Position numbers and translations under genes: made by a program. Positions 3,218 through 60,418 of a stretch of DNA of 64,000 nucleotides are shown here, piece by piece. A model generated the notes under the pieces. The model did not search any database and was not told the origin of the DNA. It was given only the letters and a program-made list of their open reading frames with translations. The stretch is from NCBI GenBank assembly GCA_964016885.1, contig OZ024742.1, forward strand, positions 85,312,001 through 85,376,000. The letters are read 5' to 3'. How positions within the stretch are numbered: the first letter of the stretch is position 1; every line of letters starts with the position of its first letter. The DNA is from Eledone cirrhosa (Eukaryota).

Positions 3218-3219
3218 CT

Positions 3220-6209: not shown

Positions 6210-6260
<51 letters not shown>

Positions 6261-6279
6261 TAATAATATAATAATATAA
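6152..6279 (+). repeat. (AAT)n microsatellite with GAT variants; left end of the retroelement array
   Basis: Seen directly. Other spacers at 11146-11205, 14732-14761, 18700-18726, 21394-21444, 24168-24194, 43205-43241, 48281-48340, 54365-54388, 60398-60418 and 61415-61463. (ATT)n at 28972-28998, 33892-33978 and 36606-36620. Confidence 0.95.
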
Positions 6280-6444
6280 GGGAAGAAGACGCACGAGGTG
6301 ACGGAGGTCATGAAATCGCTCCCGTAAGTTTTGAATTTTTAACATATTTAAATCATTTGTGAAATAACAACTCTTAGTACAAATGCTACGTAAAGCACCC
6401 GGCTTGAGCCCCAAAAAATTCGGACCCAAAATATATTGTTATAA

Positions 6445-7107
6445 GGCTCAAATATTCAAATGTTCAACTTTGTATTGTACACTGTATATCCAAAAAAAAA
6501 ATGGCTATAAATGGAAGAAGAAGAACCCCCCCCCTCCTCTCCTCTGGCTACACTATATAGGACAGCTAAACTCACCAACACCAGAAACTAGATACACCGC
6601 CCACCCCATCATCTGTGTACACTAAACACAACAGCATTTTCACCTTCACCGCCACCGCTCACTACGGCCATCATTGCCACCGCTGTCCCATCACCGCCGC
6701 CACCACCCCCTGACTCCTTCACTGCTGCTGCCACCGCTACAGCACCATCACTACAGTAATACGGCTCAAATATTCAAATATTCAACTTTGTATTGTACAC
6801 TGTATATCCAAAAAAAAAAAAAAATAAATAAATAAAATAAAATGGCTATAAATGGAAGAAGAAGAACCCCCCCCCCCCCTCCTCTCCTCTGGCTACACTA
6901 TATAGGACAGCGAAACTCACCAACACCAGAAACTAGATACACCACCCACCCCATCATCTGTGTACACTGAACACAACAGCATTTTCACCTTCACCGCCAC
7001 CGCTCACTGCGGCCATCATTGCCACCGCTGTCCCATCACCGCCGCCACCACCCCCTGACTCCTTCACTGCTGCTGCCACCGCTACAGCACCATCACTACA
7101 GTAATAC
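6445..7107 (+). repeat. Tandem ~320-345-bp monomers in the R4 5' UTR (6445-6762, 6763-7107)
   Basis: Both units start GGCTCAAATATTCAAAT and end CAGTAATAC. The equivalent pair is at 33067-33388 / 33389-33712. Confidence 0.9.
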
Positions 7108-7678
7108 GGTCGCATCACCGCCACCGCTGCCTCGGTATCGACATCACCGCCACCACTGTCTCAGTATCGCCAACGCCGCTAGTCTCTGCTGGCTACCACT
7201 TCCACATTATAGAATTCCTACTACTAACAAAGAGGAAGGCATCAAAATATATAAATAGACTCAAAAGAAAAAAGAAAAAACAAACAACAAAAGCAGCACA
7301 GCAACAACAGTAAAAAACGAGAAAAACAGAGAAAGACAAAAACAAAAAAAGAAACCCCAAAAACGTAAAGAAAATAAGAATGAAGAGAGAAGCAGGCGGA
7401 CGGACAGAGAAGAGGGGGGGAAAAGTAAAACTTAAAAAACAAAAACTAAGTCGGACATTCGAATACTACATTACAATGAAACTTATGCTTATTCATTTTT
7501 GGGGCCCTTTCTGCCCGTGTGTTTGTTTGTTTATGTGTGTCCGTATACAGCGTGGTGATAATGCCACACAAGGGCCAAGTGGGATGGCGGATCCACAGAT
7601 GGCTATGTAAACATACATTCGCCAATCCTCGATAAGAGTGTTTAAATATCGAACATAAACAGTTCGAATAACGGTGAA

Positions 7679-10600
7679 ATGGAGACTAGAACGTCATGTG
7701 ACAGACTCTCACCCAACAGGTGCCCCCTGGCTCAGCAGCAGGAACCTGACTGTCAACGAAATACTGCTGATGTTGGAGGAAGAAGAAGAAGGAAAGGGGC
7801 CAGAACCAACTGGACGAAAGAATTGAATAGAACTGTTATGCAATGCTACCTGAAAAGTAACCCCAAGGAGAGGGGCTACAGGAGACGGATGCATAACATC
7901 TGGAACGAGATTGGTTTATTTAAATTAGATGAACAAAAATTGGCCGGGCAGGCTCGGGTAATAAGAACTAATGGGTGGATAAGCGAGCTGGAACTGGAGG
8001 AACTGAGCAGAGAGAATGGCTTGGAGATGGCGGGTGTAGTATGCCAGACAAGCGAGCCGGCGGGAAATGAAGGTGAGGAGGTCCTGAGAGCGAAGGAACC
8101 ACCCGAAGCAGACAATGATCTGAATACTGAGATAAATAATACCTGGAACAGAGATACGGCCACTGAGGAGATGAATGCTGACGGGCTAGGACAAGATTCG
8201 GTTGACATCCTAAATTTAGTGGTAGATGAGTTGAACAATGATAGTGGGAGACCTATGAACCTAAGATTTGTAGACAGGAAAAAGTTAAAAGAAACAACAG
8301 CTAAGGTAAACAAAGTCATCCCATACCTTGAGGCGAGGAGTCTTCACCAGTGCAACAATATCCTCAAAGCAACAGCAAATACGGTGAGGAAACTACTTGG
8401 TATAAAAGCGAGAGGAAACAACAGACAAGAAAGAGCAGAGCCGTGGTGGAAGAAGCGACTGAGTGGGCAAATCGGGGAAATGAGAAATGACATAGGAAAG
8501 CTTGAGTCACTACTGAATGGGACACTAAAAAACATAGGCACTAAAAATAGACTGGAAATAAAATACAAAACTAGGAGTAAAAAGCTAAATATTATCATAG
8601 AGGAATTGAAGCAACGCATTGTAGCAAAGAGTGCCAAAATCAGGCGATACGAGAACAGAGTCAGTCAGTATAAACAGAACCGCATGTTCGACAACAACCA
8701 GAAGATGCTGTTTGGACAGCTTGAGGGGAAAGAAAGAGGCACCGACTTGATCCCTGGGGCGGAACAAGCTAAAACATTCTGGAGAGGAATATGGGAGCAG
8801 GATGTTAGACACAATGCCCAGGCAGGGTGGATTGAGACAGTACAGAGGGAGATCGGTGAGCAGGCACAGCAACAGACTGATTTGAGTATCACAGTTGAAA
8901 CTCTTAAGGGGCAAGCCAAAAAACTAACCAACTGGAAATCACCAGGCCCAGATGGTGTGCAGGGGTATTGGATTAAACATTTAACATCCCTCCACCCGAA
9001 GCTGACGGCCATGTTCAATGACTGCTTGGTGTCGGGTGAGGTGCCAGAGTGGTTGACAAAAGGTACCACAGTTCTGATAATGAAAGACCAAATCAAGGGT
9101 AATGATGTCACCAACTATAGACCTATCACATGTCTGCCCGTAATGTGGAAACTGTTGACGAGCATTGTGTCTGAGGAAATCTACCATCACCTCCACACAA
9201 ACAACTTGTTGCCGGACGAACAGAAAGGATGCCGAAAGAAGTCACGTGGTACAAAGGACCAGTTGCTTATTGATAAGATGGTAATGGGGAATTGCAGGAG
9301 GAGACACACTGATCTTGCCATGGGATGGATAGACTACAGAAAGGCATTTGACATGGTGCCTCATTCCTGGATCACCAAAAGCCTGGAGATCTTCAGGGTG
9401 GCAGATAACATCAGACAGTTGCTGGGCAGGAGTATGGGGTCCTGGGAGACAGAGTTGACATCAACTGGAGTATCCTTGGGAAGCGTGAAGATCAAGAGAG
9501 GTATCTTCCAGGGAGATAGCCTGTCCCCTCTGTTGTTTGTCCTTGCCCTGATGCCCTTGACCATTATGCTGCGAAAAGTGAGAGCAGGATACAAGTTGGG
9601 AAGGGGAGAGCTTACCATCAATCACCTCCTCTTCATGGACGACCTTAAGCTCTTCGGGAAAAGTGAGAAGGAGTTGGATGTGCTTGTTGACACTGTCCGT
9701 ATTTTCAGCAGTGATATATGTATGCAGTTTGGTATTGGTAAATGTGGAGTCATTGTGATGAGGAGGGGTAGGTTGAGCAGAAGTAACGGGATCCAGATAC
9801 CAACAGGTGAGATGATAAAGGAAATTGACTCTGAGGAAGGATACAAGTATTTGGGCGTTCTGGAGGCTGATGGCATAAAGAACAAAAAAATGAAGGAATT
9901 GTTAAGAACTGAATACATTCGGAGAGTAAGGAGCGTATTGAAGTCACATCTGAACAGCAGAAATGCCATAAGCGCAGTAAATTCCCGAGCTGTGTCTATT
10001 ATTAGGTACAGTGCGGGAATTCTGAGATGGAATGTTGCTGAACAAAAAGAAATGGATAGGAAGACTAGGAAGCTATTGACTATCTACAACATGTTCCACA
10101 AGAGGAGTGATGTCGATAGACTCTACCTAAGGAGATCTGAGGGTGGAAGAGGTCTTATCAGCATAGAGGACTGTGTTCAGATGGAGAAAAACAACCTATA
10201 CAAATACGTGACCTATAGTAAGGAGCCAATGCTCAGAGCTGTACTGAAGGAGGGGACAGTAGGCCAGGGGATACCCAAGGAGGAAATAACATCAAGGAGG
10301 AAGAGCAGCCTTAAGGGAAAATCCCTTCATAGTACCTTCTTTGAGAAAACTGAATTTAGAGATCCACAGACATGGAACTGGTTGAGAAGAGGAGACCTCA
10401 AAAAGGCTACAGAAGGAATGCTAATGGCTGCGCAGGAGCAGGCCCTCAAAACGAAGTGGTTGAAGCACCATATCTACAAGGAGGAGGCTAGCCCACTGTG
10501 CAGGATCTGTGGAGAGAGAGAGGAGACTGTGGCTCACATTGTGTCCGAGTGTAAACACCTAGCCCAGACCCACTATAAGGGCTGGAGACACGATGTGATG

Positions 10601-11071
10601 GGCAGGGTGATCCACTGGCACCTGTGCAAAGTAAACAATCTACCACATTCTGAGAAATGGTATGAGCATAGGCCAGAGGCGGTGATGGAGAACAATCAGG
10701 TGAAGGTGCTGTGGGATTTTAGGATACAGACGGACAAAAAACTGGAACACAATAGACCTGACCTGGTGGTTGTGGACAAAGAAAAAAGATCGTGCCTGAT
10801 TGTGGATGTGGCCTGCCCGTTCGACACGAGAGTGCAAGAGAAGGAGAGGGAGAAAATTAACCGATACCAGGACCTAAAGTGGGAGGTGAAAAGGATTTGG
10901 AACTGCCATGAAGTCAAAGTGATCCCGATTGTCATAGGCGCACTGGGGACTATCTCCAAAGGTTTCCAGGGATGGTTAAAGAAAATCGGCCCCTTCACGC
11001 TTTTTGGAACGCTTCAAAAGGCATGCTTGCTTGGAACGGCAAGAACCCTCCGATACGTCCTGAATATCTGA
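7679..11071 (+). CDS. R4/Dong polyprotein: N-terminal helical domain, reverse transcriptase, CCHC zinc knuckle, restriction-like endonuclease
   Basis: KSPGPDG, NYRPITCL, DYRKAFD, QGDSLSPLLF, HLLFMDD, YKYLG, GGRGL; CRICGEREETVAHIVSEC; RHD; RPDLVVVD...DVACP...KINRY. Confidence 0.95.
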   Translation: METRTSCDRLSPNRCPLAQQQEPDCQRNTADVGGRRRRKGARTNWTKELNRTVMQCYLKSNPKERGYRRRMHNIWNEIGLFKLDEQKLAGQARVIRTNGWISELELEELSRENGLEMAGVVCQTSEPAGNEGEEVLRAKEPPEADNDLNTEINNTWNRDTATEEMNADGLGQDSVDILNLVVDELNNDSGRPMNLRFVDRKKLKETTAKVNKVIPYLEARSLHQCNNILKATANTVRKLLGIKARGNNRQERAEPWWKKRLSGQIGEMRNDIGKLESLLNGTLKNIGTKNRLEIKYKTRSKKLNIIIEELKQRIVAKSAKIRRYENRVSQYKQNRMFDNNQKMLFGQLEGKERGTDLIPGAEQAKTFWRGIWEQDVRHNAQAGWIETVQREIGEQAQQQTDLSITVETLKGQAKKLTNWKSPGPDGVQGYWIKHLTSLHPKLTAMFNDCLVSGEVPEWLTKGTTVLIMKDQIKGNDVTNYRPITCLPVMWKLLTSIVSEEIYHHLHTNNLLPDEQKGCRKKSRGTKDQLLIDKMVMGNCRRRHTDLAMGWIDYRKAFDMVPHSWITKSLEIFRVADNIRQLLGRSMGSWETELTSTGVSLGSVKIKRGIFQGDSLSPLLFVLALMPLTIMLRKVRAGYKLGRGELTINHLLFMDDLKLFGKSEKELDVLVDTVRIFSSDICMQFGIGKCGVIVMRRGRLSRSNGIQIPTGEMIKEIDSEEGYKYLGVLEADGIKNKKMKELLRTEYIRRVRSVLKSHLNSRNAISAVNSRAVSIIRYSAGILRWNVAEQKEMDRKTRKLLTIYNMFHKRSDVDRLYLRRSEGGRGLISIEDCVQMEKNNLYKYVTYSKEPMLRAVLKEGTVGQGIPKEEITSRRKSSLKGKSLHSTFFEKTEFRDPQTWNWLRRGDLKKATEGMLMAAQEQALKTKWLKHHIYKEEASPLCRICGEREETVAHIVSECKHLAQTHYKGWRHDVMGRVIHWHLCKVNNLPHSEKWYEHRPEAVMENNQVKVLWDFRIQTDKKLEHNRPDLVVVDKEKRSCLIVDVACPFDTRVQEKEREKINRYQDLKWEVKRIWNCHEVKVIPIVIGALGTISKGFQGWLKKIGPFTLFGTLQKACLLGTARTLRYVLNI

Positions 11072-17700: not shown

Positions 17701-18699
17701 CACAATAGCTTGGGACGAGTGTGAAGTCGTCACTTCTTAATGGGGCCATGGATTGTTCTCTAGCCTCCTCTGGTGTTTCAAAGAACACGTCCACGGTTCC
17801 ATACTTTTGCCCACGTCTGATGTGGGTTTTTCTTGCCCGCACATGTCCCAAAGCTTTTTGGATTTGGGACTCGGGTGCCCGTTCCACTCGGTGCGATTTT
17901 ACATTTATTGTTCTATCTATACGACACGGTGCATAGGCGCCGATGCTCCATTTTATTAGGTGGGGGGGGGGCTGACCCTGTACCCATCTTTCTTTACCAT
18001 TTGTTTGGCATTTTCTAAATCCTCCTGATTTACCGTAAATGCTTCGAACTGTTTTGCTACTCTGGCGAAACTGAGGGGGGGGGGGTTATAATGTCATTGT
18101 TGTTGTTGTTGTTGCTATCGTTAATATTAATTTCAGTTTCAGTTGTGGTGGTGGTGACGTCAGTCGTCTTTGGTGGGGAAGAGTCCATTTTGCTTGATTT
18201 CATTTCGACATCACGAGTTAATTTATTTTTTTCTTCTTTTGTTTCTGTTGTCGCGGTGGTGGTGGTGGTGGTGGTTGTCGCGGTGGTGGTGTTGGTGGAG
18301 GCTTTAACACCTGCAGTCATTGGTAATGGCGGGAAATGAATGTCTGCCTGAGACAAATTTAAAATATTGCTAGTGCTTATATTTTTTTTTGTGTTGGCAA
18401 ACGTAGTAACATTTACAATGGTGGTGTCGGTGTGAGGTGTTAATTTGTGAGGACGGCTTTCAGCTGCTTCGTGCATAGGTGAATTAGCCATTTTTTTCAA
18501 AGAAACTTTTTTGATAATAATAAAAGTTTAAATTTTGGGCACAAGGCCCCAATCTTTTTGGGTGTCCTTTTCGGAAAACAATGTATGTGCGCTTATATAT
18601 GGTTAACAATAAAACATTTTCCATAAATGGCAATTTTTAACAAACGGAAATAACAAACCTTTGCGGAGCTCACGATGATACGATACTACGTAGGTCGCC
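14762..18699 (-). mobile_element. Chimeric Tx1-clade element: young family-X 3' part (14762-16772) joined to a divergent family-Y 5' UTR/ORF1 (16773-18699)
   Basis: The 3' part is near-identical to 48341-50364 (DQSKAFD, YADD; frameshifted). The ORF1 part is homologous but divergent (QIQKALG, VPSYCGQ, VEGRR). APE and the RT N-terminus are absent. Confidence 0.85.
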
Positions 18700-31900: not shown

Positions 31901-33877
31901 TATCATTGTTCAACTCATCTACCACTAAATTTAGGATGTCAACCGAATCTTGTCCTAGCCCGTCAGCATTCATCTCCTCAGTGGCCGTATCTCTGTTCCA
32001 GGTATTATTTATCTCAGTATTCAGATCATTGTCTGCTTCGGGTGGTTCCTCCGTTCTCAGGACCTCCTCACCTTCATTTCCCGCCGGCTCGCTTGTCTGG
32101 CATACTACACCCGCCATCTCCAAGCCATTCTCTCTGCTCAGTTCCTCCAGTTCCAGCTCGCTTATCCACCCATTAGTTCTTATTACCCGAGCCTGCCCGG
32201 CCAATTTTTGTTCATCTAATTTAAATAAACCAATCTCGTTCCAGATGTTATGCATCCGTCTCCTGTAGCCCCTCTCCTTGGGGTTACTTTTCAGGTAGCA
32301 TTGCATAACAGTTCTATTCAATTCTTTCGTCCAGTTGGTTCTGGCCCCTTTCCTTCTTCTTCTTCCTCCAACATCAGCAGTATTTGGTTGAGAGTCAGGT
32401 TCCTGCTGCTGAGCTAGGGGGCACCTGTTGGGTGAGAGTCTGTCACATGACGTTCTAGTCTCCATTTCACCGTTATTCGAACTGTTTATGTTCGATATTT
32501 AAACACTCTTATCGAGGATTGGCGAACGTATGTTTACATAGCCATCTGTGGATCCGCCATCCCACTTGGCCCTTGTGTGGCATTATCACCACGCTGTATA
32601 CGGACACACATAAACAAACAAACACACGGGCAGAAAGGGCCCCGAAAATGAATAAGCATAAGTTTCATTGTAATGTAGTATTCGAATGTCTGACTTAGTT
32701 TTTGTTTTTTAAGTTTTACTTTTTCCCCCCTCTTCTCTGTCCGTCCGCCTGCTTCTCTCTTCATTCTTATTTTCTTTACGTTTTGGGGGTTTCTTTTTTT
32801 GTTTTTGTTTTTCTCTGTTTGTTTTTCTCGTTTTTTTTTTTTTTTTTTTTTTTTGTTGCTGTTGTTGCTGTGCTGCTTTGCTTTTGTTGTTTGTTTTTTC
32901 TTTTTTCTTTTGAGTCTATCTATATATTTTGATGCCTTCCTCTTTGTTAGTAGTAGGAATTCTATAATGTGGAAGTGGCAGCCAGCAGAGGCTGGCGGCG
33001 TTGGCGATACTGAGACAGTGGTGGCGGTGATGTCGACACCGAGGCAGTGGTGGCGGTGATGCGACCGTATTACTGCAGTGATGGTGCTGTAGCGGTGGCA
33101 GCAGCAGTGAAAGAGTCAAGGGGTGGTGGCGGCGGTGATGGGATAGTGGTGGTAATGATGGCCGTAGTGAGCGGTGGCGGTGAAGGTGAAAATGCTGTTG
33201 TGTTTAGTGTACACAGATGATGGGGTGGGTGGTGTATCTAGTTTCTGGTGTTGGTGAGTTTAGCTGTCCTATATAGTGTAGCCAGAGGAGAGGAGGGGGG
33301 GGGCTTCTTCTTCTTCCATTTATAGCCATTTTATTTTTTTTGGATATACAGTGTACAATACAAAGTTGAATATTTGAATATTTGAGCCGTATTACTGTAG
33401 TGATGGTGCTGTAGCGGTGGCAGCAGCAGTGAAGGAGTCAAGGGGTGGTGGCGGCGGTGATGGGATAGTGGTGGTAATGATGGCCGTAGTGAGCGGTGGC
33501 GGTGAAGGTGAAAATGCTGTTGTGTTTAGTGTACACAGATGATGGGGTGGGTGGTGTATCTAGTTTCTGGTGTTGGTGAGTTTAGCTGTCCTATATAGTG
33601 TAGCCAGAGGAGAGGAGGGGGGGGGGGGTTCTTCTTCTTCCATTTATAGCCATTTTTTTTTTTTTGGATATACAGTGTACAATACAAAGTTGAATATTTG
33701 AATATTTGAGCCTTATAACAATATATTTTGGGTCCGAATTTTTTGGGGCTCAAGCCGGGTGCTTTACGTAGCATTTGTACTAAGAGTTCTTATTTCACAA
33801 ATGATTTAAATATGTTAAAAATTCAAAACTTACGGGAGCGATTTCATGACCTCCGTCACCTCGTGCGTCTTCTTCCC
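28999..33877 (-). mobile_element. Full-length R4/Dong family A copy 4 on the minus strand
   Basis: Reverse complement of 6280-11145, including the UTR monomers. Flanked by (ATT)n on +. Confidence 0.93.
29073..32465 (-). CDS. R4/Dong polyprotein, intact 1130 aa
   Basis: Same RT, CCHC and RLE motifs as 7679-11071. Confidence 0.95.
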   Translation of the reverse strand: METRTSCDRLSPNRCPLAQQQEPDSQPNTADVGGRRRRKGARTNWTKELNRTVMQCYLKSNPKERGYRRRMHNIWNEIGLFKLDEQKLAGQARVIRTNGWISELELEELSRENGLEMAGVVCQTSEPAGNEGEEVLRTEEPPEADNDLNTEINNTWNRDTATEEMNADGLGQDSVDILNLVVDELNNDSGRPMNLRFVDRKKLKETTAKVNKVIPYLEARSLHQCNNILKATANTVRKLLGIKARGNNRQERAEPWWKKRLSGQIGEMRNDIGKLESLLNGTLKNIGTKNRLEIKYKTRSKKLNIIIEELKQRIVAKSAKIRRYENRVSQYKQNRMFDNNQKMLFGQLEGKERGNDLIPGAEQAKTFWRGIWEQDVRHNAQAGWIETVQREIGEQAQQQTDLSITVETLKGQAKKLTNWKSPGPDGVQGYWIKHLTSLHPKLTAMFNDCLVSGEVPEWLTKGTTVLIMKDRSKGNDVTNYRPITCLPVMWKLLTSIVSEEIYHHLHTNNLLPDEQKGCRKKSRGTKDQLLIDKMVMGNCRRRHTDLAMGWIDYRKAFDMVPHSWITKSLEIFRVADNIRQLLGRSMGSWETELTSTGVSLGSVKIKRGIFQGDSLSPLLFVLALMPLTIMLRKVRAGYKLGRGELTINHLLFMDDLKLFGKSEKELDVLVDTVRIFSSDICMQFGIGKCGVIVMRRGRLSRSNGIQIPTGEMIKEIDSEEGYKYLGVLEADGIKNKKMKELLRTEYIRRVRSVLKSHLNSRNAISAVNSRAVSIIRYSAGILRWNVAEQKEMDRKTRKLLTIYNMFHKRSDVDRLYLRRSEGGRGLISIEDCVQMEKNNLYKYVTYSKEPMLRAVLKEWTVGQGISKEEITSRRKSSLKGKSLHSTFFEKTEFRDPQTWNWLRRGDLKKATEGMLMAAQEQALKTKWLKHHIYKEEASPLCRICGEREETVAHIVSECKHLAQTHYKGWRHDVMGRVIHWHLCKVNNLPHSEKWYEHRPEAVMENSQVKVLWDFRIQTDKKLEHNRPDLVVVDKEKRSCLIVDVACPFDTRVQEKEREKINRYQDLKWEVKRIWNCHEVKVIPIVIDALGTISKGFQGWLKKIGPFTLFGTLQKACLLGTARTLRYVLNI

Positions 33878-36620: not shown

Positions 36621-39600
36621 AGGGTAGATACGTACATGGTGGATAGAATGTTATGGAATTGCTCCCGTACGTTTTTGATTTTTTACATAATTAAAACAAT
36701 TGTGATAGAATAATTCTTATTACAAATGGGACATAAGATACCAGTCTTTACTCTCAGGGAGTGACACACATAAAATTATGGCATAGAGCTCCAATATTTC
36801 ATACTTAATTTTGTATCAGAAATGTTATAGTAAAACAAAAATGTTTACAAATGGAAGAAAACAACACCCAAATAAATTCACCACCGCCGCCGCCGCCACC
36901 ACCACCACTACCACAAGAGAATTAGCTAGATACAACTAGAACAACAGTATCACAACACCATCACTACAGTATTACTATCGCATCACCAGCGTCACCATTG
37001 CATCATCGCTACCATCACTATTCCCCCACTACCTCCTGTTAAGAGAGGGATGGTAATAGTGTCACGACACATGACTAGAAGCGAGGAAATCACCAAAAGA
37101 TATAAAAATATATAAATAGACAGATTTAGTGATCTAGTGAAACAGCTAACAACAACAACAACCCCAAAATGATTATTGTTGTTGTATCTCTAAACTCTCT
37201 CAAAATGTTTAGTTTAAACGATGTCAAATGTAAACTATAATATAATAATAATTATTGTTTCTACTAATAATAATGATTTCTTTATTGGCCACAAGGGCTG
37301 ACATCAAGAAAAACATTACAGACGCAGAGGACGGCACAGGACGGTACGATGTGAGTTTTGTGCGCGTAAATATTTTTATTATTTATATAAGAAAAGAAAA
37401 AAAAGGACATAGAAACATATATATATATATATAAACAATAAAAATGAAAATGGAAACAATGAAAATTCACCAATAGTGGGGAAACCTCCGAGGTTTACTC
37501 CTGGGGAAAACCACATAAAAGACCACGGCCACCCTGACCACCAGGGCAAGCGCCCTCTCTCAATTTTTCTATTTCTCAAACTACAGACGTATATTCAGAG
37601 TGGTCCCGTTCACTCGGTCCATTCTCGCTACATTCACCCACCTTTTAACAAACTTGCTAGAAAGCACCACTTGCCTCTCCACCCTGATTTTCCTCTTCAA
37701 GTGAAACTTGAAAAAGTTAATTAGGGATTCGCCGAAGAGGAAAGTGTCTGTCTTTAACCCTTTTAACCTTGTCCACCACACAATCTGTTTCGCCATGGCC
37801 ACCAGGCAGATGATAACCGCCTGTCCTTCCTCCTCGAAGTAAGACGGCGAGACCATCTGCCCAATGGACTCAGTCGACAACCGGATCAGTCCTACACTCG
37901 ACAGCAACTGTTCGACATAGCTCCACAAGTTAGCAATGCGCGGGCACTGAACGAGTGCGTGCATGACGGTTTCGTCGCACTGCGCGCATCTAGGATAGGC
38001 TCGTCTGATGGCACCTCCCTGCCTGTAGAGCTTATCTCGAACCGGCAGCGCTCCCCGGTAGCACTGCCAGGCCAGGGATTTTTGGAAGTTATCCATAGGC
38101 CCTTGGCTGAAAGTTCTCCGGAAGAGAGCAAACAACTGATCTTCTTCGACGCCCAGGATCTCTCCGAGAATGTCGTCGCTCTTCCCCTCCACTAGTCCTC
38201 TATAGAACGCCAAGGTGGATGTTCCACCGATACTGGTGCCCAGCTGGCAGGGGGCAGTGAGCGACTGGAGACATTCCAGTTTCCAAGCGCTATTCCAGGA
38301 CTGCAGCTCCGTCAAGGAGACGAGCTGTGGGAAAATGTGCCTGGCGTAGGGCGACCACACCTGTTCACCGTCAAGGAAGCACCAGAGATGTCGCAGCCTC
38401 AGCGCATGTTTGTCCATCATCAGCCATGACATGCACAGTCCTCCAGGCAACGGGTGTTGACAACAGATGGATCGTCTAATATGGGAGCGCGTCCCTTCCA
38501 CAAAAAGTGGAAGAGGAGCCGCTCCATTTTGGTGAGAGTTGTGCTGGAGCAAGGGACGACGGTGAGGCGGTAGCAGATGACGGATGCGGTGTACGCATTC
38601 GCCACCTCCGCCCGGCCTTTCAGGGACAGCTTTCTCTCGGCCCGTTTCTGGGTGAGGGAGGCCACCCTGCTTGTCACCTCGTTCCAGTTTTTCTCCATCT
38701 GGAGGTCCGGTCTAAACCAGTCCTGAGCAATTTAACCAGCCCGTCCGTCCAACGTCCCACGACGCTGTCGGACGGCATGTACTTGCCTCTCGAGGTGCCG
38801 AGCTGCAAGCCCACCGACTTTTCCTGGTTTATCATTGCTCCTGTCACCGCTTGGTATTCCTTGAGAGCGGTGCCGAGCATCTGGAAGTGCCTGGTGCTCG
38901 AAATCACCACGGTGACGTGTCGGCGTAAGCCGACTCATACTTCCCGCATCCTACTTCGCGTGGGACACCCCTCATTGGCCCCAGTTTGTGCAGTAACGGC
39001 TCGAGAGCCAATACGTACAAGAGGGACGAGAGCGGACAACCTTGGCCGACTGAGCGCATGATGATGAACGGCTGCGACAGATGACCATTCACCTTCACAG
39101 CTGAGCAGATGTCGCTGTACATTGCTGCGATCCAACCCCTGAAAACGGTGTCGAAACCGGCTGCCTCGAGGACCGCCGCCATGTACCGATGGTCGACCCT
39201 ATCGAATGCTTTGGATTGATCCAAGTTGATCAGTGCCCCACCCGTGCCAGGTTCCTTAACCACCCTCTCTATGAGGTATCGCATGAGGTGGAGCTTGTCG
39301 TGTATGGATCTGTCCGGAATGGCGCATGTCTGCGCCTCTCCCACCAGACCCTTGACGACAAGCGCCAACCTCGTTGCTAACACCTTGACCAAAATCTTGA
39401 ACTCTGCGTTTAGCAGGGTTATGGGCCTGAAATTATCGATAAGATCCCCCTTGTTCGGGTCTTTTCTTAGCAGCGCCACTGCTTCCCGACTCACAAAACT
39501 GGGAATGCTCCCGTTCTGTTGCCAGTTGCAGTAGACGTCTGCCAACAGGTCACCGAACATGTCTGGCATAAATGCAAAAAGCTCGTAGGGCAGACCATCC

Positions 39601-42600: not shown

Positions 42601-45376
42601 AGGTATCGGTGTCATTGTTGTTCTTGTTGTTTTCGTTGATACTGTTGCTGTTGTTCCGGTTATTGTGGCTGTTGTTATTATTGTTGTTTTTGTTGATACT
42701 GTTCCTACTATTATTGTTGTTGTGGCTGTTGTTATTGTTATTGTTATTGTCGTTCTCGACCTTACCGCTGTTATTTTTGTTATTGTCGTTCTCGGCTTTA
42801 CCGCTGTTATTTTTGGTGCTATTTTTGGTGTTGTTTGTGTTAGAAATATTTGTTAATTTTAAATCTGTAACAATCTTTTTCTATGTAATATCTTCGTTTA
42901 TATTTACCTCCGCTGGAACGCTGTCTTGTTGACATGATGATAAATTCTCCCTCTCTCTGTGTTAATGACAGCGCTCTCTCTCTTTCTTGTGTTATCCATG
43001 TTGAAATAAAAAAAAACATATTTCACACAAATACGACACCCCGTAAAGGGGTGCCGTATTATTTACGAGTGAACCGTTGTATTAGGTGGGTCACTTCTTC
43101 TAAACTTTTATCAAATTTAAAACTTGAATAAAAGGTTTAGGATGGTTGAAAACGAGGTAAAACGTTGAAAAAAAACTGGATGCGATAAGAAGCGTGGTTT
43201 CACCAACAATAATAATAATAATAATATAATAATAATAATGATAAGCAACAAGTCGAAGAATTACAGAACTAAACACAGACAAAAACAATTGCAACAACAG
43301 AAGAAAAACAAATTTCACAAGTTTTGAACGCAATAACCCCTACTTCTCTCGTAGCTAAAACCAAAAATAGCAGCAGCAGCAACAACAACAGTAGTAACCA
43401 ATGTTACTGGCCTTGAAAAACAAAAAGGTAAAAAGAAAAAGAATCAAAGTCAGACATTCAAATATTACATTGAAACTTATGTTTATTTTTTAAAGTGTTT
43501 ATCTATTTGATTGTTTATTTATGTTCGTCTACAGCGCGATGGTGCCACGCTAAAATCACTGGGGGTGATGAAATCACCGGTGGTTATGTCACCTTTCATT
43601 CACCAATCCTCGATATGAGTGTTTAAATGTCGAACCTAAACAATTCGAATAACGGTGAAGAGGAGACTGGAACGCCATGTAAAAGACTCTCACCCAGCAA
43701 GTGCTCGCTGGCCCAGCAGCAGGGACCTGGCTGTCATCCAAATAAAGCTGGTGTTGGAGGAAGGAGAAGGAAAGGGACAAGAACCAACTAGACGAAAGAA
43801 TTGAATAGAACTGTCATTGAATGTTACCTGAAGAGTAACTACATGGGAAAAGGCTTTAGGAAACGGATGCATAACATCTGGAAGGAAATTGGTCTATTTA
43901 AATTAGCTGAACAAAAATTGGCCGGGCAGGCTCGGGGAATAAGAACTCATGGATGGATAAGCGAGTTTGGAATTGGAGGAACTGAACAGAGAGACTAAGT
44001 TGGAAATGGAGAGTGGAGTATGTCAGGCAAACGAGCCAGTGGGAAATGAAGGTGAAGAGGTTAAGATACCTGAAAAAGCATCCGAAGCAGACAGTGATCT
44101 GAATGTTGGAATAAATAACATCTGGAACAAAGATACAGCCATTGAGGAAATGAATGCTGATGTGGTAGGACAAGATTTGGTTGATATCCTGAACTTAGTG
44201 GTAGATGAAATGAACAATGATAGGGGAAAACTTATCAACCTAAGATTTGTAGACAGGAAAACATTAAAATAATCAACAGCTAAAATAATTAAAGTCATCC
44301 CATACCTTGAGGCAACAATATCCTCAAAGCAACAGCAAATGCGGTGAGGAAATTACTTCGCATAAAAACGAGAGGAAACAACAAATAAGAAAGACCAGGA
44401 CCTTGGTGGAAGAAACGACTGAATGGTCAATTCAAGGAAATAAGTAGACATTGGAAAGCTTGAGTCGCTACTTAATGGGACATTACAAAACATAGACAGT
44501 AAAAATAGATTGGAAATAAAGTACAAAACTAGGAGGAAAAAGCTAAATATTATCATAGAGGAACTGAAGCAACGCGTTGTAGCAAAAAGTGCAAAGATTA
44601 GGCAGTATGAGAGCAGAGTCAGTCAGTATAGACAGAACCGACCGTTTGACAACAGCCAGAAGATGTTTGGACAGCTTGAAGGGAAAGAATGAGGCAACGA
44701 CATGATCCCTGAGGCGGAACAGAATAAAACATTCTGGAGAGGAATATGGGAACAGGATGTTGAACATAATCATCAGGCAGTGTGGATTGAGACAGTACAA
44801 AAGTAGATTCGAGAACAAGCACACCAACAAAATGATTTGAGTATCACAGTTGAAACTCTTAAAGGGCAGGCCAAAAAACTAACCAACTGGAAATCACCAG
44901 GCCCAGATGGTGTGCAGGGTATTGGATTAAATATATAACACCCCTTCACCCGAAACTGACAACCATGTTCAATGACTGCTTGATATCGGGTGAGGCACCA
45001 GAGTTGTTGACAAAAGGTACCATAGTTCTGGTAATGAATGAGCGAATCACGGGTAATGATGTTACCAACTATAGACCTATCACATGTCTGTCCGTAATGT
45101 GGAAACTGTTAACAAGCATTGTGTCTGAGGAAATCTACCATCACCTCCACATAAACAACTTGTTACCGGATGAACAGAAAGGATGCCGAAAGAAGTCCCG
45201 TGGTACAAAAGACCAGTTACTTATTGATAAGATGGTCATGAGGAATTGAAAGAGGAGACACACTGGTCTTGCCATGGGATGGATAGATTACAAAAAGGCA
45301 TTCGACATAGTACCTCATTCTTACATAAACAAAAGCCTAGTGATCTTCAAGGTGCAGATAACATCAGACAGTTGTT
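36621..45376 (+). mobile_element. Older family-A R4/Dong copy, 3'-truncated, interrupted in its 5' UTR by the Tx1 element at 37275-43204
   Basis: 36621-37170 is homologous to the 5' UTR start (GCTCCCGTA.GTTTT, CTAGATACA, CACTACAGT). 43242-43659 is the UTR end. 43660-45376 is a decayed ORF up to ADNIRQL. Confidence 0.82.
37275..43204 (-). mobile_element. Full-length but degraded Tx1-clade element, family Z
   Basis: Broken ORF1 (CYLCGSKGHLRAFC) and ORF2 (GDWN, SYLDR, DHK, DQSKAFD, YAD). 3' end AATAAAGAAATC. AAT runs on both sides. Confidence 0.9.
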
Positions 45377-54151: not shown

Positions 54152-54650
54152 GTTTTTTTGTTTAAAATGAAATTTTGAGTACAAAACCCCAATAACTGGT
54201 TATTTAACCCCGAAGGGCCAAATAACGGACAGAAAGACCCCTCTCACGAGGAGGAGGGTGTCTTTATCAACAATTTGGTTCAAGTTTTAAACAATTTACA
54301 ATTGTTTTAACGGTTAAAAATTACTATACCTTACAGAGCCGAGCCTCCGTCAACCATGGCATTCAATAATAATAATAATAATAATAATGATTTCTTTATT
54401 AACCACAAGGGTTTACATAAAGTAGACATTAAGGACAGTGCAGGACAATGCAGGACGGTACAAATGGGCATTTCAGCGTGTAAAAAAACAAAAACAGAGG
54501 ATGTAACAAAAATAACAATGAAAATAACAATGAAAAATTCCCCAATAGGGGGGAGACTTCGGAGGGACATTTGTGGAGAAAGCCCAGTAAAAAGCCACAA
54601 TGACCCTGACCACCAAGGCAAGTGCCCTCTCCCAGTTTTCCACCTTTAGT

Positions 54651-57600
54651 TTACAGATATATACTCAGAGTCGGCCCATTCACTCGGGCCATTCTTGCTT
54701 CTCTCACCCATCTTTCAACAAAATGCTGGGAAGAGAGCACTTCCTTCTCTACTCTGATTTTCCTTTTCAAATGAAATTTGAAAAAGTCAATCAGAGCATC
54801 ACCGAAGAGGTAAGTGCTCGTCTTCAGCCCTTTCAAACGTGTCCACCATACTATCTCTTTCGCCATGGCCACCAGACAGATAAAAACTGCCTGCCCTTCC
54901 CGGCTAAAGGAGGAGGGCGGGGCAATCCTCACGATAGACTCAGATGATAGCTGGATCCGTCCTAAACGCGACAGCAGGTGTTCGACATAAACCCACAAGT
55001 CAGCAATTTTCGGACACTGGACGAGTGCGTGCAGGACGGTTTCGTCGCCCTGCGCGCATCTCGGACATGCCCGGCTGACGGCACCTCCATGCCTGTAGAG
55101 TTTATCCCGAACTGGCAAGGCTCCTCGGTAGCACTGCCAGGCCAGAGATTTCTGGAAGTTGTCCATAGGCCCCGGCCCGAAAGTTCTTCCGAAGAGATTG
55201 GCTAGTTGATTTTCGTCGACGCCTAGAGTTTCCCCAAGTACGTCGTCGCTCTTCCCCTCCACTAATCCTCTATAGAACGCCGAGGTGGAGTTTCCACCGA
55301 TCACATTGCCCGATTGGTCGAGGGCTGTGAGCGCCTGAAGACATTCCAGTCTCCAGGCGCTCCCTCTCGGTCTTCGCTTGACCCAGGACTGCAGCTCCGT
55401 CAAGGAAACGAGCTGGGGAAAAACGCGTCTAGCAAACGGCGACCACCCCTGATCACCGTCGAGGAAGAGGTGGAGATGTCGTAGCCTGAGCGCGTGCCTG
55501 CGCATCATCAGCCACGGCATGCCCAGCCCTCCACGTAGCGGGTGTTGACAACAGATGGACCGCCTGACCATCGGAGCACGTCCCTTCCACAAAAAGCGAA
55601 AGAGCAAACGCTCCAGCGCAGTCAGGCGAGGCTTAGGACAAGGTACGACGGTTAGGCGGTAGCAGATGACAGACGCGATGTACGCGTTAGCCACCTCCGC
55701 TCGACCTTTCAGGGATAGCTTCCTCTCCGCCCATTTCTGGGTGAGAGAAGCCACCCTGCTCGTCACCTCGTCCCAGTTTTTGTCCGTCTGGAGGTCCGGA
55801 CCGAACCAGACCCCTAGCAATTTAACCGGTCCGTCCGTCCAGCGCCCGACGACGCTGTTGGACGGCATGGACCTGCCTCTCCAGGTGCCGAGCTGCAGGC
55901 CCACTGACTTTTCCTGGTTGATCATTGCTCCTGTCACCGCTTCGTATTCTCTTAGTGTAGTGCCGATCGCCTCGATGTGTTTGGCGTTCGACACCACTAC
56001 GGTGACATCGTCCGCATATGCTGACACGGATCTTCCGCATCCTAGTTCGCGCGGGACTCCCCTCAACGTCTCCAGTTTGTGCAGTAATGGCTCGAGAGTC
56101 AATACGTACAAGAGGGACGAGAGGGGACATCCTTGGCGGACCGAGCGCATGATGTTGAACGGTTCCGACAGGTGACCGTTCACTCTCACCACAGAGCAGA
56201 TGTCGCTGTGCATGGCAGCGATCCAGCCTCTGAAGACGGGCCCAAAGCCAGCCGCCCTCAGGACTGCCGCTAGGTAACGATGGTCGACCCTATCGAAAGC
56301 TTTCGACTGATCTAAATTGATCAAGGACCCACCCGTGCCAGGTTCCCTAGCTACCCTCTCTACGATGTATCGCATGAGGTGGAGGTTGTCGTGGATGGAT
56401 CTGTCGGGAATGGCGCATGTCTGCGCCTCTCCCACCAGACCACCAACGACAAGCGCCAACCTCTTTGCTAGCACCTTGGCCAAAATCTTAAACTCTGTGT
56501 TTAGCAGAGTTATGGGCCGGAAATTGTCTATGTTATCCCCCTTGTTCGGATCCTTTCTCAGCAGTGCCACCGCTCCTCGGCTCACAGAACTGGGAATTCT
56601 CCCGTTCTGTTGCCAGTTGCAGTAGACATCCGCCAAGAGGCCTCCGAACAAGTCTGGCATCTGTACGTAAAGTTCATAGGGCAGACCATCCAAACCAGGC
56701 GATTTACCCCTTGTGCAGCCAGTCATTGCCTCCCGTACTTCAGCGGCTGTTATCGGCTTTTCGCAACACCTCGCCTCAGTGGCCGAGAGCCGCGGCAGTC
56801 CGTCGAGGTAGACACTAAAGTCCATCCCTCTACCCGGCCCCCCGCTGCCCCCGAACAGCTGAGCGAAGTGTCGCTGAAAAGCTTCACACATTTGCCCGGG
56901 ATCGAGTAGCATGCGCCCGTCGTGGTCCACCAAAGACCGGATCGTGGCTTTGTTGCCACGACGCGCCTCCGCCACTCGGGCCCATTGAACGGCTTTCGTC
57001 CCCTCGTGTCTGAGAGCACGCACCCTAGCTCTGACAACGCAGCCTTCGTGCTTTGCATTGAAGAATTGGTCAAGGGCCAATTTCGCCGCAAGCACGTCGG
57101 TCGCAATGCCTTTGCTAAGCGCCTCGTCTAATTTTCTAACTAGTTCTCCCTCTGCTCTATTTTTCTCTATTGCTAAAGCCTTACTAAACCTAATCGATTC
57201 TATTCTAATCGCTCTTTTCAGAGCAAACCACCACTTGTTGTTGACGATGGCCCCCGTCAACGCCCGCTTAACTAGTTCGCTAATCCGGTCTCTGTAGGCC
57301 TTGCGCGCTGGTAAGGACGCGTTTAGCTTCCAGTAGCCGGGTCCTCGTCTATGAAGCCTATCTAAGTCAAGCACACAGATCACGAATTTGTGGTCCGTGT
57401 AGCTGACTATCTTGAATTGTGGACAGCCTATGCTAGACCTATCTATTTCCCTACAAAATACTCTATCTAGATATGATCTGGATGACCCTATGCGGTTTGT
57501 CCAAGTCCACATTGGCACATTCGGGAAATCCAATCGGTACCTGTCAGACAGTTCAAAACGCCTGAGCAGGTTGGTGAGGCTCTTGCACCCTCCACCCCTA

Positions 57601-58070
57601 TCCGCTAATCCCACACAGTCCCAGCGTGCATCTAAGATCCCGTTCCAGTCGCCCACTAACACTAAAGAGCGGGACGTTCCAAGAAAGGTCTCCAGACGCC
57701 GGAAGAAATCAGGCCGCCCTGCTCCTGTCGGGGCATAGACGGCCACTAGCCTGAAAGCTTGCCCGTCTCCGCTGGTCACGTCCAGCACCACCAGCTTACC
57801 CTCTGGGTCCAGGAAGATGGCCCGTATGGCGAGATCCAAACCTCTCCGAAAAAGCACAGCAACTCCTCCACCCGATCCAGGACGGCTGGGAGATGCGTAC
57901 ACATCGTAGCCGCCGAAGATCGGTGCGAAGGCCCGTGCTTCGGAGATTCTGGTCTCGCTGATGGCCACTACATCTATGTTTAGTGACCTGAGGTCGTTGA
58001 GCAGGTGACCCTGCTTCCATGACGACCCCAAGCCACGCGCATTTATGCTGCCTATTCTGAGTGAGGTCAT
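54651..58070 (-). CDS. Tx1 ORF2, 1139 aa: apurinic-like endonuclease + reverse transcriptase + C-terminal Cys/His motif
   Basis: SINARGL, ISET, VYAP, GDWN, SYLDR, TDHK, YWKLN; KSPGLDGL, FRPITLLN, DQSKAFDRV, RQGCPLS, YADD, GGLG; CPRC...ETVLHALVQC. Confidence 0.95.
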   Translation of the reverse strand: MTSLRIGSINARGLGSSWKQGHLLNDLRSLNIDVVAISETRISEARAFAPIFGGYDVYASPSRPGSGGGVAVLFRRGLDLAIRAIFLDPEGKLVVLDVTSGDGQAFRLVAVYAPTGAGRPDFFRRLETFLGTSRSLVLVGDWNGILDARWDCVGLADRGGGCKSLTNLLRRFELSDRYRLDFPNVPMWTWTNRIGSSRSYLDRVFCREIDRSSIGCPQFKIVSYTDHKFVICVLDLDRLHRRGPGYWKLNASLPARKAYRDRISELVKRALTGAIVNNKWWFALKRAIRIESIRFSKALAIEKNRAEGELVRKLDEALSKGIATDVLAAKLALDQFFNAKHEGCVVRARVRALRHEGTKAVQWARVAEARRGNKATIRSLVDHDGRMLLDPGQMCEAFQRHFAQLFGGSGGPGRGMDFSVYLDGLPRLSATEARCCEKPITAAEVREAMTGCTRGKSPGLDGLPYELYVQMPDLFGGLLADVYCNWQQNGRIPSSVSRGAVALLRKDPNKGDNIDNFRPITLLNTEFKILAKVLAKRLALVVGGLVGEAQTCAIPDRSIHDNLHLMRYIVERVAREPGTGGSLINLDQSKAFDRVDHRYLAAVLRAAGFGPVFRGWIAAMHSDICSVVRVNGHLSEPFNIMRSVRQGCPLSSLLYVLTLEPLLHKLETLRGVPRELGCGRSVSAYADDVTVVVSNAKHIEAIGTTLREYEAVTGAMINQEKSVGLQLGTWRGRSMPSNSVVGRWTDGPVKLLGVWFGPDLQTDKNWDEVTSRVASLTQKWAERKLSLKGRAEVANAYIASVICYRLTVVPCPKPRLTALERLLFRFLWKGRAPMVRRSICCQHPLRGGLGMPWLMMRRHALRLRHLHLFLDGDQGWSPFARRVFPQLVSLTELQSWVKRRPRGSAWRLECLQALTALDQSGNVIGGNSTSAFYRGLVEGKSDDVLGETLGVDENQLANLFGRTFGPGPMDNFQKSLAWQCYRGALPVRDKLYRHGGAVSRACPRCAQGDETVLHALVQCPKIADLWVYVEHLLSRLGRIQLSSESIVRIAPPSSFSREGQAVFICLVAMAKEIVWWTRLKGLKTSTYLFGDALIDFFKFHLKRKIRVEKEVLSSQHFVERWVREARMARVNGPTLSIYL

Positions 58071-58105
58071 GTTTAAAATAGAGTGGAAAAGATGGGAAAG
58101 ACCAC

Positions 58106-60184
58106 TTACCGTACTTTTGGTAGAGGAGGGATGGTTTTTACATCCCTTTTCACTTGATCGTCTGGTGAAGGGTCCGTTGAATCGTCCCTTCGGCTGGTCG
58201 TCGTCTCTTCTAAGAGAATGTCTGAGTATACTCTTCGATTGATGGTTCCTCCTAGGTCCCTGAAATCACCAACTGCGTTGGGGAATTTCGTTTTAATGTT
58301 TGTGTATTGTTTCTGTGCTATTTTTAGCAGTCTTATGTTAGTTGGCGTTTTGATTGGTGCTGGTATTATGTAGTCCTGTTGTGAAATGTCTGTGTGTTCA
58401 ATTATGTAAGTCATTAGTTTCTTGTTGTGTGTATTTATTGCCGTGCATTTGTTTTTCTGGGGGTGGGGTGTGGTTCTACTATTTTCTTGTCGTTGTTGCT
58501 GGGTGTGTGTGTTTTGTTGTTGTGTTTGCGATGTTGGTGCTTGTGGTGGTGGTGTTAAATGTGTTGTTGGCGGTGGTGATGGTGGTGCTAGTGTGGGTGG
58601 TGATGGTGTTGGTGTTGTTGCTGCTGTGGGTCTCTTTGCAGTAGACTTTACCCTTTTCTCATTTCTTTCCTCCCTTTTCAAAGGCGACGATGCGCTGCTT
58701 CTGCGTTTGTGCCTTCTTACGACCTTTTGCCATCTCTCTCCCACCTCACACTCCATGTCTGATTCTGTGAGGTCGGGGAGGGGTACCAACTCCAATCTTT
58801 CACTTGTTGTTGTTGGTGATGTTTGCACTGGAGTCTCTGTTGCAGCTGCATTTGGTATTGCTGTTGTTGTTGTTAGTATTTCCACTGCTGCTGCTGTTTT
58901 TGATTTCCGTGGAGTGGGTATGGGTGCCACGGGCCTATCGTTCCTGGTTGCCGCTTGTCCTGTTGCTGGTAGCCGTGGAGCCGGATTCGGAAGGAGGGGG
59001 GTTTTCTCCTTTCTCAGGGTCTTCTCGTTGCAGAAGGCCCTGAGGTGAGTCTTCGATCCACAGCGAAAGCATTTCGGGCGTTTGCCCTCAACACTTATGG
59101 GCAGTTGAGTGCCGTTATCGAAGTCTATCACATCCGGGATAGCTTCGATGCACTCCTGGTTGGTTTGGATTAGCATCTCAATGGAGGAGCCGACCCAATC
59201 TTCTCTTACTTTTTTCTGTACTTGCAGTACAGTTGTTTTGTCCTCGATTCCGACGAGGACAGACGCGGCCAGCCAAGAAGGGGTTATTCCGGGGGGGACG
59301 TGGGTCAGTTTGACCCTCACAATTTTTTGCCCACAGTAGGAGGGCACCAACACCATTTCCTCGCTCCTTAGGGTCACTACTGATTGGGCCTTTGCCTCCT
59401 GGGGTGTGGCAAAAAGTACGTCTACGGTGGCATATTTTTTGCCTCGGGTGATGTGCGTTTTCCGCTGCCACACAGACCCCAAGGCTTTTTGTATTTGGGC
59501 CTCTGTGGCTCTTTCCACCCTACGGGATTTTGTACTTACTGTACGGTACGTGACCGTACAGTGCTCTTGGGTTTCGAAAAAATTTTTCGCTGCCTTGCAG
59601 ATTGCTCGGTGTCCGTTCTTTGTCACCATCTTCTTCGCTTCCTCTAATTCCTCATTTGTTATGAGGATTGTTTCCAAGTTTTTCGCAATACCTGCAAATG
59701 AGATTGGTTTTTCTCTGCTGTTGTTGTTGTCGTCAGAGCTGCTGGTACTTTTGTTGCTGCAGGTACTACGACTACTGCCTCCGCCGCTGTTGCTGTGGTT
59801 GTTGTTGGTGTTGCTGCTGCTAATGATGTTGTTGTTTATGCTGCTGGTGATGCTGTTGCGGCTGCTACTGTTGTTTTCATTGTCACTGTTGCTGTTGTTA
59901 TTACGGCTGCTACTGCTATTATTCCTGACGTCAGACGAATGAACTGGGTTTTCGTATTTCCCGCACACCTGTTTCGTCGCTGTCGTCGTCGTCGTGGAGA
60001 AACCTTGCACGCTTTGCACGAGACTTTTCTTTTCTTTCGTCGCTTGCGAAAGAGAAGGGAGGGAGAGAGACACATTTAAAGAAGGGAGGGAGAGAGACAA
60101 TCTTCTCTCTGCTGTAGTGATGATTGAGGAAGAAGAAGACGGAATGAGTGGGAGTGACGTATGAAATTTCTTTTTGGTAGCCAT
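58106..60184 (-). CDS. Tx1 ORF1
   Basis: Open frame; first ATG at 60184; CCHC knuckle; differs from the sister copy by a short in-frame indel in the Pro-rich tract. Confidence 0.88.
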   Translation of the reverse strand: MATKKKFHTSLPLIPSSSSSIITTAERRLSLSLPSLNVSLSLPSLSQATKEKKSLVQSVQGFSTTTTTATKQVCGKYENPVHSSDVRNNSSSSRNNNSNSDNENNSSSRNSITSSINNNIISSSNTNNNHSNSGGGSSRSTCSNKSTSSSDDNNNSREKPISFAGIAKNLETILITNEELEEAKKMVTKNGHRAICKAAKNFFETQEHCTVTYRTVSTKSRRVERATEAQIQKALGSVWQRKTHITRGKKYATVDVLFATPQEAKAQSVVTLRSEEMVLVPSYCGQKIVRVKLTHVPPGITPSWLAASVLVGIEDKTTVLQVQKKVREDWVGSSIEMLIQTNQECIEAIPDVIDFDNGTQLPISVEGKRPKCFRCGSKTHLRAFCNEKTLRKEKTPLLPNPAPRLPATGQAATRNDRPVAPIPTPRKSKTAAAVEILTTTTAIPNAAATETPVQTSPTTTSERLELVPLPDLTESDMECEVGERWQKVVRRHKRRSSASSPLKREERNEKRVKSTAKRPTAATTPTPSPPTLAPPSPPPTTHLTPPPQAPTSQTQQQNTHTQQQRQENSRTTPHPQKNKCTAINTHNKKLMTYIIEHTDISQQDYIIPAPIKTPTNIRLLKIAQKQYTNIKTKFPNAVGDFRDLGGTINRRVYSDILLEETTTSRRDDSTDPSPDDQVKRDVKTIPPLPKVR

Positions 60185-60418
60185 GTTTTTTTGTTTAAAA
60201 TGAAATTTTGGGTACAAAACCCCAATAACTGGTTATTTAACCCCGAAGGGCCAAATAACGGACAGAAAGACCCCTCTCACGAGGAGGAGGGTGTCTTTAT
60301 CAACAATTTGGTTCAAGTTTTAAACAATTTACAATTGTTTTAACGGTTAAAAATTACTATACCTTACAGAGCCGAGCCTCCGTCAACCATGGCATTCAAT
60401 AATAATAATAATAATAAT

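Follow-up and report, generated by a model that had tools for sequence, protein, structure and literature searches.

The window analyzed here is a 64,000-nucleotide stretch of the 3.0-Gb genome of the animal Eledone cirrhosa (GenBank assembly GCA_964016885.1, contig OZ024742.1, forward-strand positions 85,312,001 to 85,376,000) and consists of a nest of LINEs inserted into each other's (AAT)n arrays (Table 1). Elements of one class contain a single open reading frame (ORF), which encodes RT and a C-terminal restriction-like endonuclease (RLE), and read the AAT strand. Those of the other class are Tx1-like, contain ORF1 and an APE-RT ORF2, and read the ATT strand.

Table 1. Elements, 5' heads and target arrays in the window
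Feature	Position	Strand	Comment
Tx1-X young copy, 5' UTR (head)	60185..60397	-	ORF1 ATG at 60184
Part of the Tx1-X head matching the joint R4+U+V+W+Y model (no X in the model)	60289..60375	-	nhmmer E 0.039 in the window
(AAT)n target array, Tx1-X 5' junction	60398..60418	.	Tx1 reads the ATT strand
Tx1-X ORF1	58106..60184	-	N-terminus of low complexity, CCHC knuckle
Tx1-X ORF2	54651..58265	-	APE endonuclease + RT
Head of second, tandem Tx1-X copy	54152..54364	-	
Young R4-A copy, head	6280..6500	+	homologous to Tx1 heads (very probable); relic ATG at 6501, frame of ~18 codons
R4-A leader remainder	6501..7678	+	ACC/AAC-rich repeats including a ~320-nt duplication; no long frame; swap breakpoints fall here
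R4-A ORF	7679..11071 (frame 7646-11071)	+	RT + restriction-like endonuclease
(AAT)n target array, R4-A 5' junction	6154..6276	.	R4 reads the AAT strand
Second full-length R4-A copy, head	33654..33877	-	
Old R4 copy, head	36622..36850	+	Tx1-U-only model E 1.3e-5; Tx1-Y-only model E 0.0075
Tx1-Y copy, head	18492..18699	-	clearest Tx1 homologue of the R4 head in the window; z 7.0 vs old R4; R4-only model E 0.026
Tx1-Z copy, head	43000..43207	-	distantly related at most; z 2.9 with old R4

The nested elements and their targets

The product of the R4-A ORF matches the Pfam RT domain and no APE, its translation displays a C-terminal CCHC motif followed by a PD..D motif, and its closest solved structure is R2. 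The R4 copies are flanked by AAT arrays at both ends, as expected of elements with the (TAA)n target described for Dong (PMC7998251). By layout and target, the single-ORF elements belong to the R4/Dong clade, like R4 of Ascaris and Dong of Bombyx, which share the domain layout and the (TAA)n target (PMC7998251). Tx1-X combines an ORF1 with a CCHC knuckle and an ORF2 with APE and RT domains that is L1-like, its closest structure being human L1 ORF2p (E 3e-52). Assignment of the two-ORF elements to the Tx1 clade of the APE-encoding L1 group fits these features, and their microsatellite targeting is in line with that described for Tx1 (PMC4494074). No homologues of the Tx1 ORF1 core were found in the protein database. 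The initial annotation, made from the letters of the window, had labeled R4 as RLE and Tx1 as APE elements, and both labels are borne out by domains, motifs and closest structures (R2 versus L1 ORF2p). Active Dong-R4 and L1-Tx1 families are also reported in a repeat survey of Octopus vulgaris (PMC13282606).

In the old R4 copy (36622-45374), a full Tx1-Z element interrupts the leader at an AAT stretch within it, so that the leaders themselves are targets of insertion. Elsewhere in the window, several long, MITE-like inverted repeats (633-3552) are the source of weak matches to microRNA models.

Related 5' heads in R4/Dong and Tx1 elements

Elements of both classes begin with a module, hereinafter the head, whose first base directly follows the array and which runs up to an A-rich ATG, a span of 209-231 nt in the window copies. 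The initial annotation had described a module of about 110 nt common to the 5' ends of Tx1-X and R4-A. All six collinear blocks it listed are found at the given positions, right behind the microsatellite, and the exact 13-mer (36691-36703 and 60343-60331) is indeed common to the old R4 copy and Tx1-X. However, the homologous module really measures about 220 nt, and Tx1-X is not its best partner: the relationship is far clearer with Tx1-Y and with families outside the window. As judged from the comparisons below, the first ~220 nt of the R4/Dong elements of this genome are very probably homologous to Tx1 5' UTRs.

Blind HMM searches yielded three further Tx1 families with related heads, namely W, V and the old family U. 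Copies were counted by pattern searches of the genome, the numbers of matches being 1121 (younger R4 head), 288 (old R4 head), 2422 (Tx1-Y), 325 (Tx1-W) and 6 (Tx1-U). From the sets of heads compared below, those that lacked a flanking array or had no ATG between 170 and 275 nt were removed before counting, as were near-duplicates (>93-97% identity). The heads of U, V, W and Y run into Tx1 ORF1, which is recognizable in 2 of the 6 copies of U. At one locus (G000 C1:423.37-423.42 Mb), ten Tx1-W heads form a head-to-tail array with a spacing of about 5.8 kb.

Profile searches in both directions connect the two classes. In the 1.66 Mb searched, an HMM built from Tx1-U only matches 36 R4 heads (best E 3.9e-6, median 4.7e-4), and an R4-only HMM matches U at 1.2e-5 and V at 0.007. 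Neither model produced an unlabelled match at E<=0.1 or a match to a non-LINE sequence in these 1.66 Mb, which correspond to about 0.06% of the genome and consist of partly overlapping loci enriched for these elements. Profile-profile scores, compared with those of 200 block shuffles with the ATG excluded, gave z values for old R4 of 19.9 with U, 14.9 with W, 14.2 with V and 13.4 with Y (0/200 shuffles each), 4.0 with X (1/200) and 2.9 with Z (3/200). For young R4, the values are 11.4 (U), 8.3 (V), 4.9 (W), 3.2 (Y), 2.8 (X) and 1.4 (Z); reverse complements score near null. One old R4 head and one U head are identical in 145 of 206 aligned columns, and Tx1 and R4 heads have diverged by about 30% or more. 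The initial annotation had raised the possibility that such motifs are generic in host promoters or unrelated elements. The median scores of old R4 versus W and versus Y, which none of 1845 real AT-rich windows reaches, argue against this, as does the lack of unlabelled matches in the 1.66 Mb. By these comparisons, the homology of heads between RLE and APE elements can be considered established by U, V, W and Y.

Two observations concern Y-like sequences. Near position 85232500 of G000 C3, a decayed Y-like head (joint model E 3e-9) is followed by ORF1-like sequence of low complexity. Weak HMM matches, among them many SINE-like tails in the loci, liken the pre-ATG hairpin motif of the Tx1-Y copy (18529-18553, minus strand) both to the 3' tail of an abundant SINE-like repeat and to the 3' end of Tx1.

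For the pair singled out initially, Tx1-X and R4-A, local alignment compared with 1000 dinucleotide shuffles gave z 4.6 (0/1000), so that the predicted excess over shuffles is there, at a significance that is modest. By the same measure, old R4 and Tx1-Y score z 7.0 (0/1000), Tx1-X and old R4 z 4.0 (3/1000), R4-A and Tx1-Y z 3.1 (7/1000), and Tx1-X and Tx1-Y z 1.8 (56/1000). The first R4-only HMM did not match Tx1-X at E<=10 in the 0.64 Mb searched. Among the 1845 AT-rich windows, 17 reach the median X score with young R4, and 182 and 192 reach it with the two old R4 copies; the best X copy reaches a score of 91 with young R4, above the background maximum of 78. The joint R4+U+V+W+Y model, from which X was left out, matches the Tx1-X head (60375-60289) in the window and gives it only E 0.44 over the 1.66 Mb. 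When the first 120 nt are taken alone, the profiles of old R4 and X score z 5.0 (0/500). Thus, the sequence similarity of the Tx1-X/R4-A pair, taken by itself, is suggestive, not decisive, and Tx1-X is probably a more distant member of the related heads.

A pattern on the first block has 2570 matches in the genome, at least 100 of them of X type. In the second half of its UTR (60200-60300, minus strand), where its alignment to the other heads stops, Tx1-X has a pair of strong hairpins, and the loop of one of these is UUCG. The R4-like state ATGGTGG is found in an old X subfamily, which was considered as ancestral and set aside, its 7 genome matches being too few. Drift of young X toward R4 states was likewise dropped: the same states occur in some older X copies, and we claim no polarity.

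Head exchange between R4-A and R4-B

The R4 elements of this genome fall into two lineages, R4-A and R4-B, with proteins that are only about 37% identical; R4-A has relatives at about 60% in other organisms. Of 30 R4-B ORF starts, 24 are preceded by the same head as in R4-A and the remaining 6 are 5'-truncated; five full-length examples were confirmed. In a tree of 63 heads, each with an ORF marker and no long array ahead of that marker, R4-A and R4-B interleave such that 5 label changes are needed, 3 of them forced by strong branches, and monophyly of the R4-B heads is rejected (p-AU 2.6e-79). The RT tree separates R4-A from R4-B, but does not reject their monophyly (p-AU 0.147). A comparison of module and RT phylogenies had been suggested in the initial annotation; within R4, it reveals a head tree incongruent with ORF identity.

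Between young heads of the two lineages, 218 of 224 columns are the same; the common sequence extends to about nt 547, within ACC-rich repeats present in both leaders. The heads intermediate toward that of young R4-A, its precursors, sit on R4-B bodies in all 12 cases sampled. Together, these comparisons show that heads have been repeatedly exchanged between R4-A and R4-B. Tx1 families evidently swap 5' parts as the R4 lineages do: Tx1-X and Tx1-Y share 93% of ORF2, about 55% of the ORF1 core and only weakly related heads, and one V head precedes an ORF1 nearer to that of X than to that of W.

Two features of R4 leaders deserve mention. A tandem duplication of ~320 nt (6438-7109 and 33065-33719), present in some of the young R4-A leaders, includes a second copy of the relic ATG together with the end of the head. 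At three loci (L032, L047, L022), the R4-B leader contains the 3' tail of an abundant SINE-like repeat some 300 nt ahead of the ORF, which may be what is left of an earlier head.

The recent history of the head can be followed at the 9-mer common to young R4-A and Tx1-X. The block TGACGGAGG, which had been taken for a conserved one, is a recent derived state in R4, and older R4 heads differ there. The state preceding it is present in 300 genome copies, a first intermediate in 37 and a second one in 21, and young R4-A differs from its predecessor at four places in the first 118 nt, all of them within six bases. Because amplified intermediates exist, the match with Tx1-X is convergent and was built stepwise in young R4 heads after capture; they also rule out conversion from Tx1-X in one step. 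Convergence toward pairing of the 9-mer with a conserved block in a hairpin was considered and rejected, since no fold is better than shuffles and no energy trend appears along the series. Selection for a putative factor-binding site at the 9-mer is possible. With the rest of the first 118 nt fixed, this graded series of heads offers a ready allelic series for the study of host-factor selection in a LINE promoter.

Origin and role of the shared head

The best-kept stretches of the head across families, in the numbering of the old R4 copy, are +41..+51, which is the best-kept upstream block, +113..+116 and +151..+180. The latter corresponds to a hairpin before the ATG in U, V, W, Y and X, with energies mostly from -6 to -17 kcal/mol (four copies are weaker); in 15 R4 heads, most of the pairing is lost (0 to -5.5 kcal/mol). 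The ATG itself opens long ORF1 frames in Tx1 and frames of 2-75 codons in 81 R4 heads, the R4 ORF starting 500-1200 nt beyond it. For the heads as such, no stable fold better than shuffles was found, and an Rfam scan detected no ribozyme at E<=5 and no other RNA family. A loose descriptor of our own for HDV-like ribozymes, which has no positive control, fits 1 of 87 R4, none of 28 W and 1 of 38 Y heads; it fits 18 of 48 X heads, only from position ~121, away from the 5' end.

The R4 copies begin at one fixed base behind the array, and the head lies between the fixed 5' end and the ORF1 ATG, the position of an L1-type internal promoter. Given this position and what is known of L1-class 5' UTRs, the head is probably an internal Pol II promoter. 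Contigs of four runs cover the Tx1-X head; such contigs cannot show transcription starts. Shared regulation of R4-A and R4-B, whose young heads are about 97% identical, is plausible, and co-regulation of Tx1 with R4, with heads diverged by about 30% or more, is doubtful.

Our preferred explanation, which we hold with rather better than even confidence, is that an ancestral R4 element captured the 5' UTR and ORF1 start of a Tx1 element, likely with an internal promoter, and that R4 lineages have exchanged this head since. The direction from Tx1 to R4 is likely, as suggested by the decay of the ATG frame to a short uORF and the loss of the hairpin in R4, both of which are intact in Tx1. It is further suggested by the absence of the head from R4 relatives elsewhere: of 25 R4-type 5' regions taken from metagenome loci, none has the head (best sense E 0.63), and R4 and Dong, as described, have an HDV-like ribozyme at their start (PMC3774820). 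At least five Tx1 families carry the head, with ORF1 cores that are 38-55% identical to X or W. The deep nodes of the head tree are unsettled (R4+U is not rejected, p 0.16; R4+X has support 38/0; a Tx1-only clade is not rejected, p 0.54), so that the direction rests on evidence other than phylogeny.

The donor would have been an old U/V/W/Y-like Tx1 family, not present-day Tx1-X. A 5'-truncated R4 might have landed in sense in the AAT/AAC-rich (Asn/Thr-coding) 5' part of Tx1 ORF1, or the RT could have jumped templates at that place; the Tx1 start site would then drive an RNA that the R4 protein copies from the R4 3' end. Later swaps may reflect template switches, guided by homology, within the ACC-rich repeats that the leaders have in common. 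The sequence behind the ATG in R4 leaders matches Tx1 ORF1 in low-complexity tracts only, and no protein-level relic of ORF1 was found in the R4 leader. Among 121 Tx1 heads, none leads into a sense R4 ORF as a fresh chimera would, and of 29 R4 3' ends, one abuts Tx1 in sense and 13 do so in antisense; therefore, the proposed route of capture would be rare.

The homology of the heads is also compatible with movement from R4 to Tx1, or with a third source, for instance a host promoter or a now extinct element, that supplied both, a possibility that we consider unlikely. The unsettled deep nodes leave room for it, the old R4 head is about equally similar to U, V, W, Y and the first half of X, as an ancestor would be, and the profiles covered only the small part of the genome given above, which bears on a third source. 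Conversely, the decayed frame and hairpin of R4, the breadth of Tx1 families that carry the head, the 25 R4-type regions elsewhere that do not have it and the lack of non-LINE matches in 1.66 Mb all speak against this possibility. We assign a similarly low probability to capture of the head from Tx1 without its being the working promoter of R4, which would instead be expressed by read-through or from an inner promoter, with the head as a relic or with a role in translation or RNA packaging. R4 elements do occur in tandem arrays, where read-through is possible, and R4/Dong elements as described depend on co-transcription and self-cleavage (PMC3774820). Yet the copies start at a fixed base, neither the HDV descriptor (1 of 87 heads) nor the Rfam scan points to a ribozyme that could make that end, and conservation of the +41..+51 block, together with the repeated sweeps of the head between lineages, would be odd for a relic.

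That there is no common descent at all, and that the AT-rich leaders acquired the same core-promoter motifs of the host by convergence, seems to us quite improbable. Convergence has evidently occurred at the 9-mer, divergent L1 families within one host are described as having 5' motifs in common (PMC5381506), and shuffle nulls ignore positional composition; still, the heads are collinear and about 70% identical over 200 nt, above every real AT-rich window tested, the sequences preceding the endonuclease at 30 loci of other LINE clades gave no match (loci which may stop short of the 5' ends), and Tx1-Z, in the same niche, fails to approach the scores of U, V, W and Y. The least credible reading, to which we give hardly any weight, is the literal case of the initial annotation, in which Tx1-X and R4-A would be co-regulated through a recent transfer from one to the other. 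The score of the young R4-A/young X pair above background and the profile similarity over the first 120 nt are in its favor. Against it, X is the most distant related head at full length, the amplified intermediates indicate that the 9-mer was not copied in one step, and the young R4-A head apparently derives from R4-B. Thus, homology across the RLE/APE divide is well supported, with lateral transfer as its simplest reading, but transfer from Tx1-X to R4-A is rejected, given that X is the farthest head and the quoted exact matches are in part young, independent states. Capture from an old Tx1 family followed by exchange among R4 lineages remains the explanation that we prefer.

LINEs are known, from L1, to change their promoters over time, and the source of the new 5' UTRs is mostly unknown. 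Here, the donor can be assigned to a class, one that the deepest split of non-LTR elements separates from the recipient. What appears to be new is the exchange of a LINE 5' module across the RLE/APE divide together with ongoing exchange between two ancient R4 lineages, a phenomenon that we consider real and broader than initially reported. No RLE element with an APE-derived 5' UTR was found in the literature, although a record is possible in subscription journals, Repbase/Dfam notes or supplements. More tentatively, and with appreciably less than even confidence, we envisage that LINEs of the (AAT)n niche pool their 5' heads across the two classes, such that R4 dropped ribozyme processing for a Tx1 promoter, lineages sweep improved versions, and one host factor selects the 9-mer in R4 and the active Tx1-X. 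Repeat libraries will cross-annotate the 5' ends of Dong-R4 and Tx1 elements, which calls for caution.

Several known systems are comparable in part. Among mammalian L1 families, 5' UTRs with their promoters are replaced, with 11 replacements counted in mouse (PMC3600994, PMC5381506), and there, as here, heads depart from the ORF tree and the 5' end is repeatedly recruited from another family. In the L1 cases described, however, donor and recipient belong to one clade, whereas here the exchange crosses the RLE and APE classes; and co-existing L1 lineages have different promoters, whereas R4-A and R4-B have one head. This sharing and exchange cuts against the mammalian L1 rule that long co-existing lineages need different promoters. 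ORF1 has been transferred between CR1, L2 and Jockey lineages, the proposed route being insertion of a 5'-truncated element into one of another type (PMC4120745). In that case, too, a 5' module crosses clade borders, by the route that we propose, but the account concerns APE elements and a working ORF1 as the unit, whereas here a single-ORF RLE recipient keeps the UTR and the ORF1 start decays. Shared 5' heads among partners in one niche or machinery are also described for Tx1-Mar and SINEU of crocodilians (PMC4494074) and for Pr77, common to the L1Tc/ingi elements of trypanosomes (PMC4035085); those are a LINE with its dependent SINE and elements of one clade, respectively, in contrast to two autonomous elements with different classes of endonuclease. 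Unlike R4 of Ascaris and Dong of Bombyx, with their 5' HDV-like ribozyme (PMC3774820), the R4 elements of this genome have a Tx1-type UTR and no such ribozyme was found in their heads.

The 5' ends of R4 elements display further variation. The invariant R4 block at 6317-6322 opens with the same six letters as the 5' end of Bombyx Dong, as given by a primer (PMC3774820); this likeness is probably due to chance, no P1 partner being conserved here. Behind the AAT array of five metagenome R4 elements (L342, L345-L348), we observed a conserved 5' motif of about 60 nt with apparent pairing, possibly an undescribed ribozyme variant; in the four elements scanned, it has no Rfam match at the gathering score. 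At four other metagenome loci (L340, L343, L349, L359), some of which fall near R4-B in the RT tree, the first 260 nt of R4-type elements of other organisms contain, by eye, tRNA-like or SINE-like heads, and R4 5' ends look generally replaceable.
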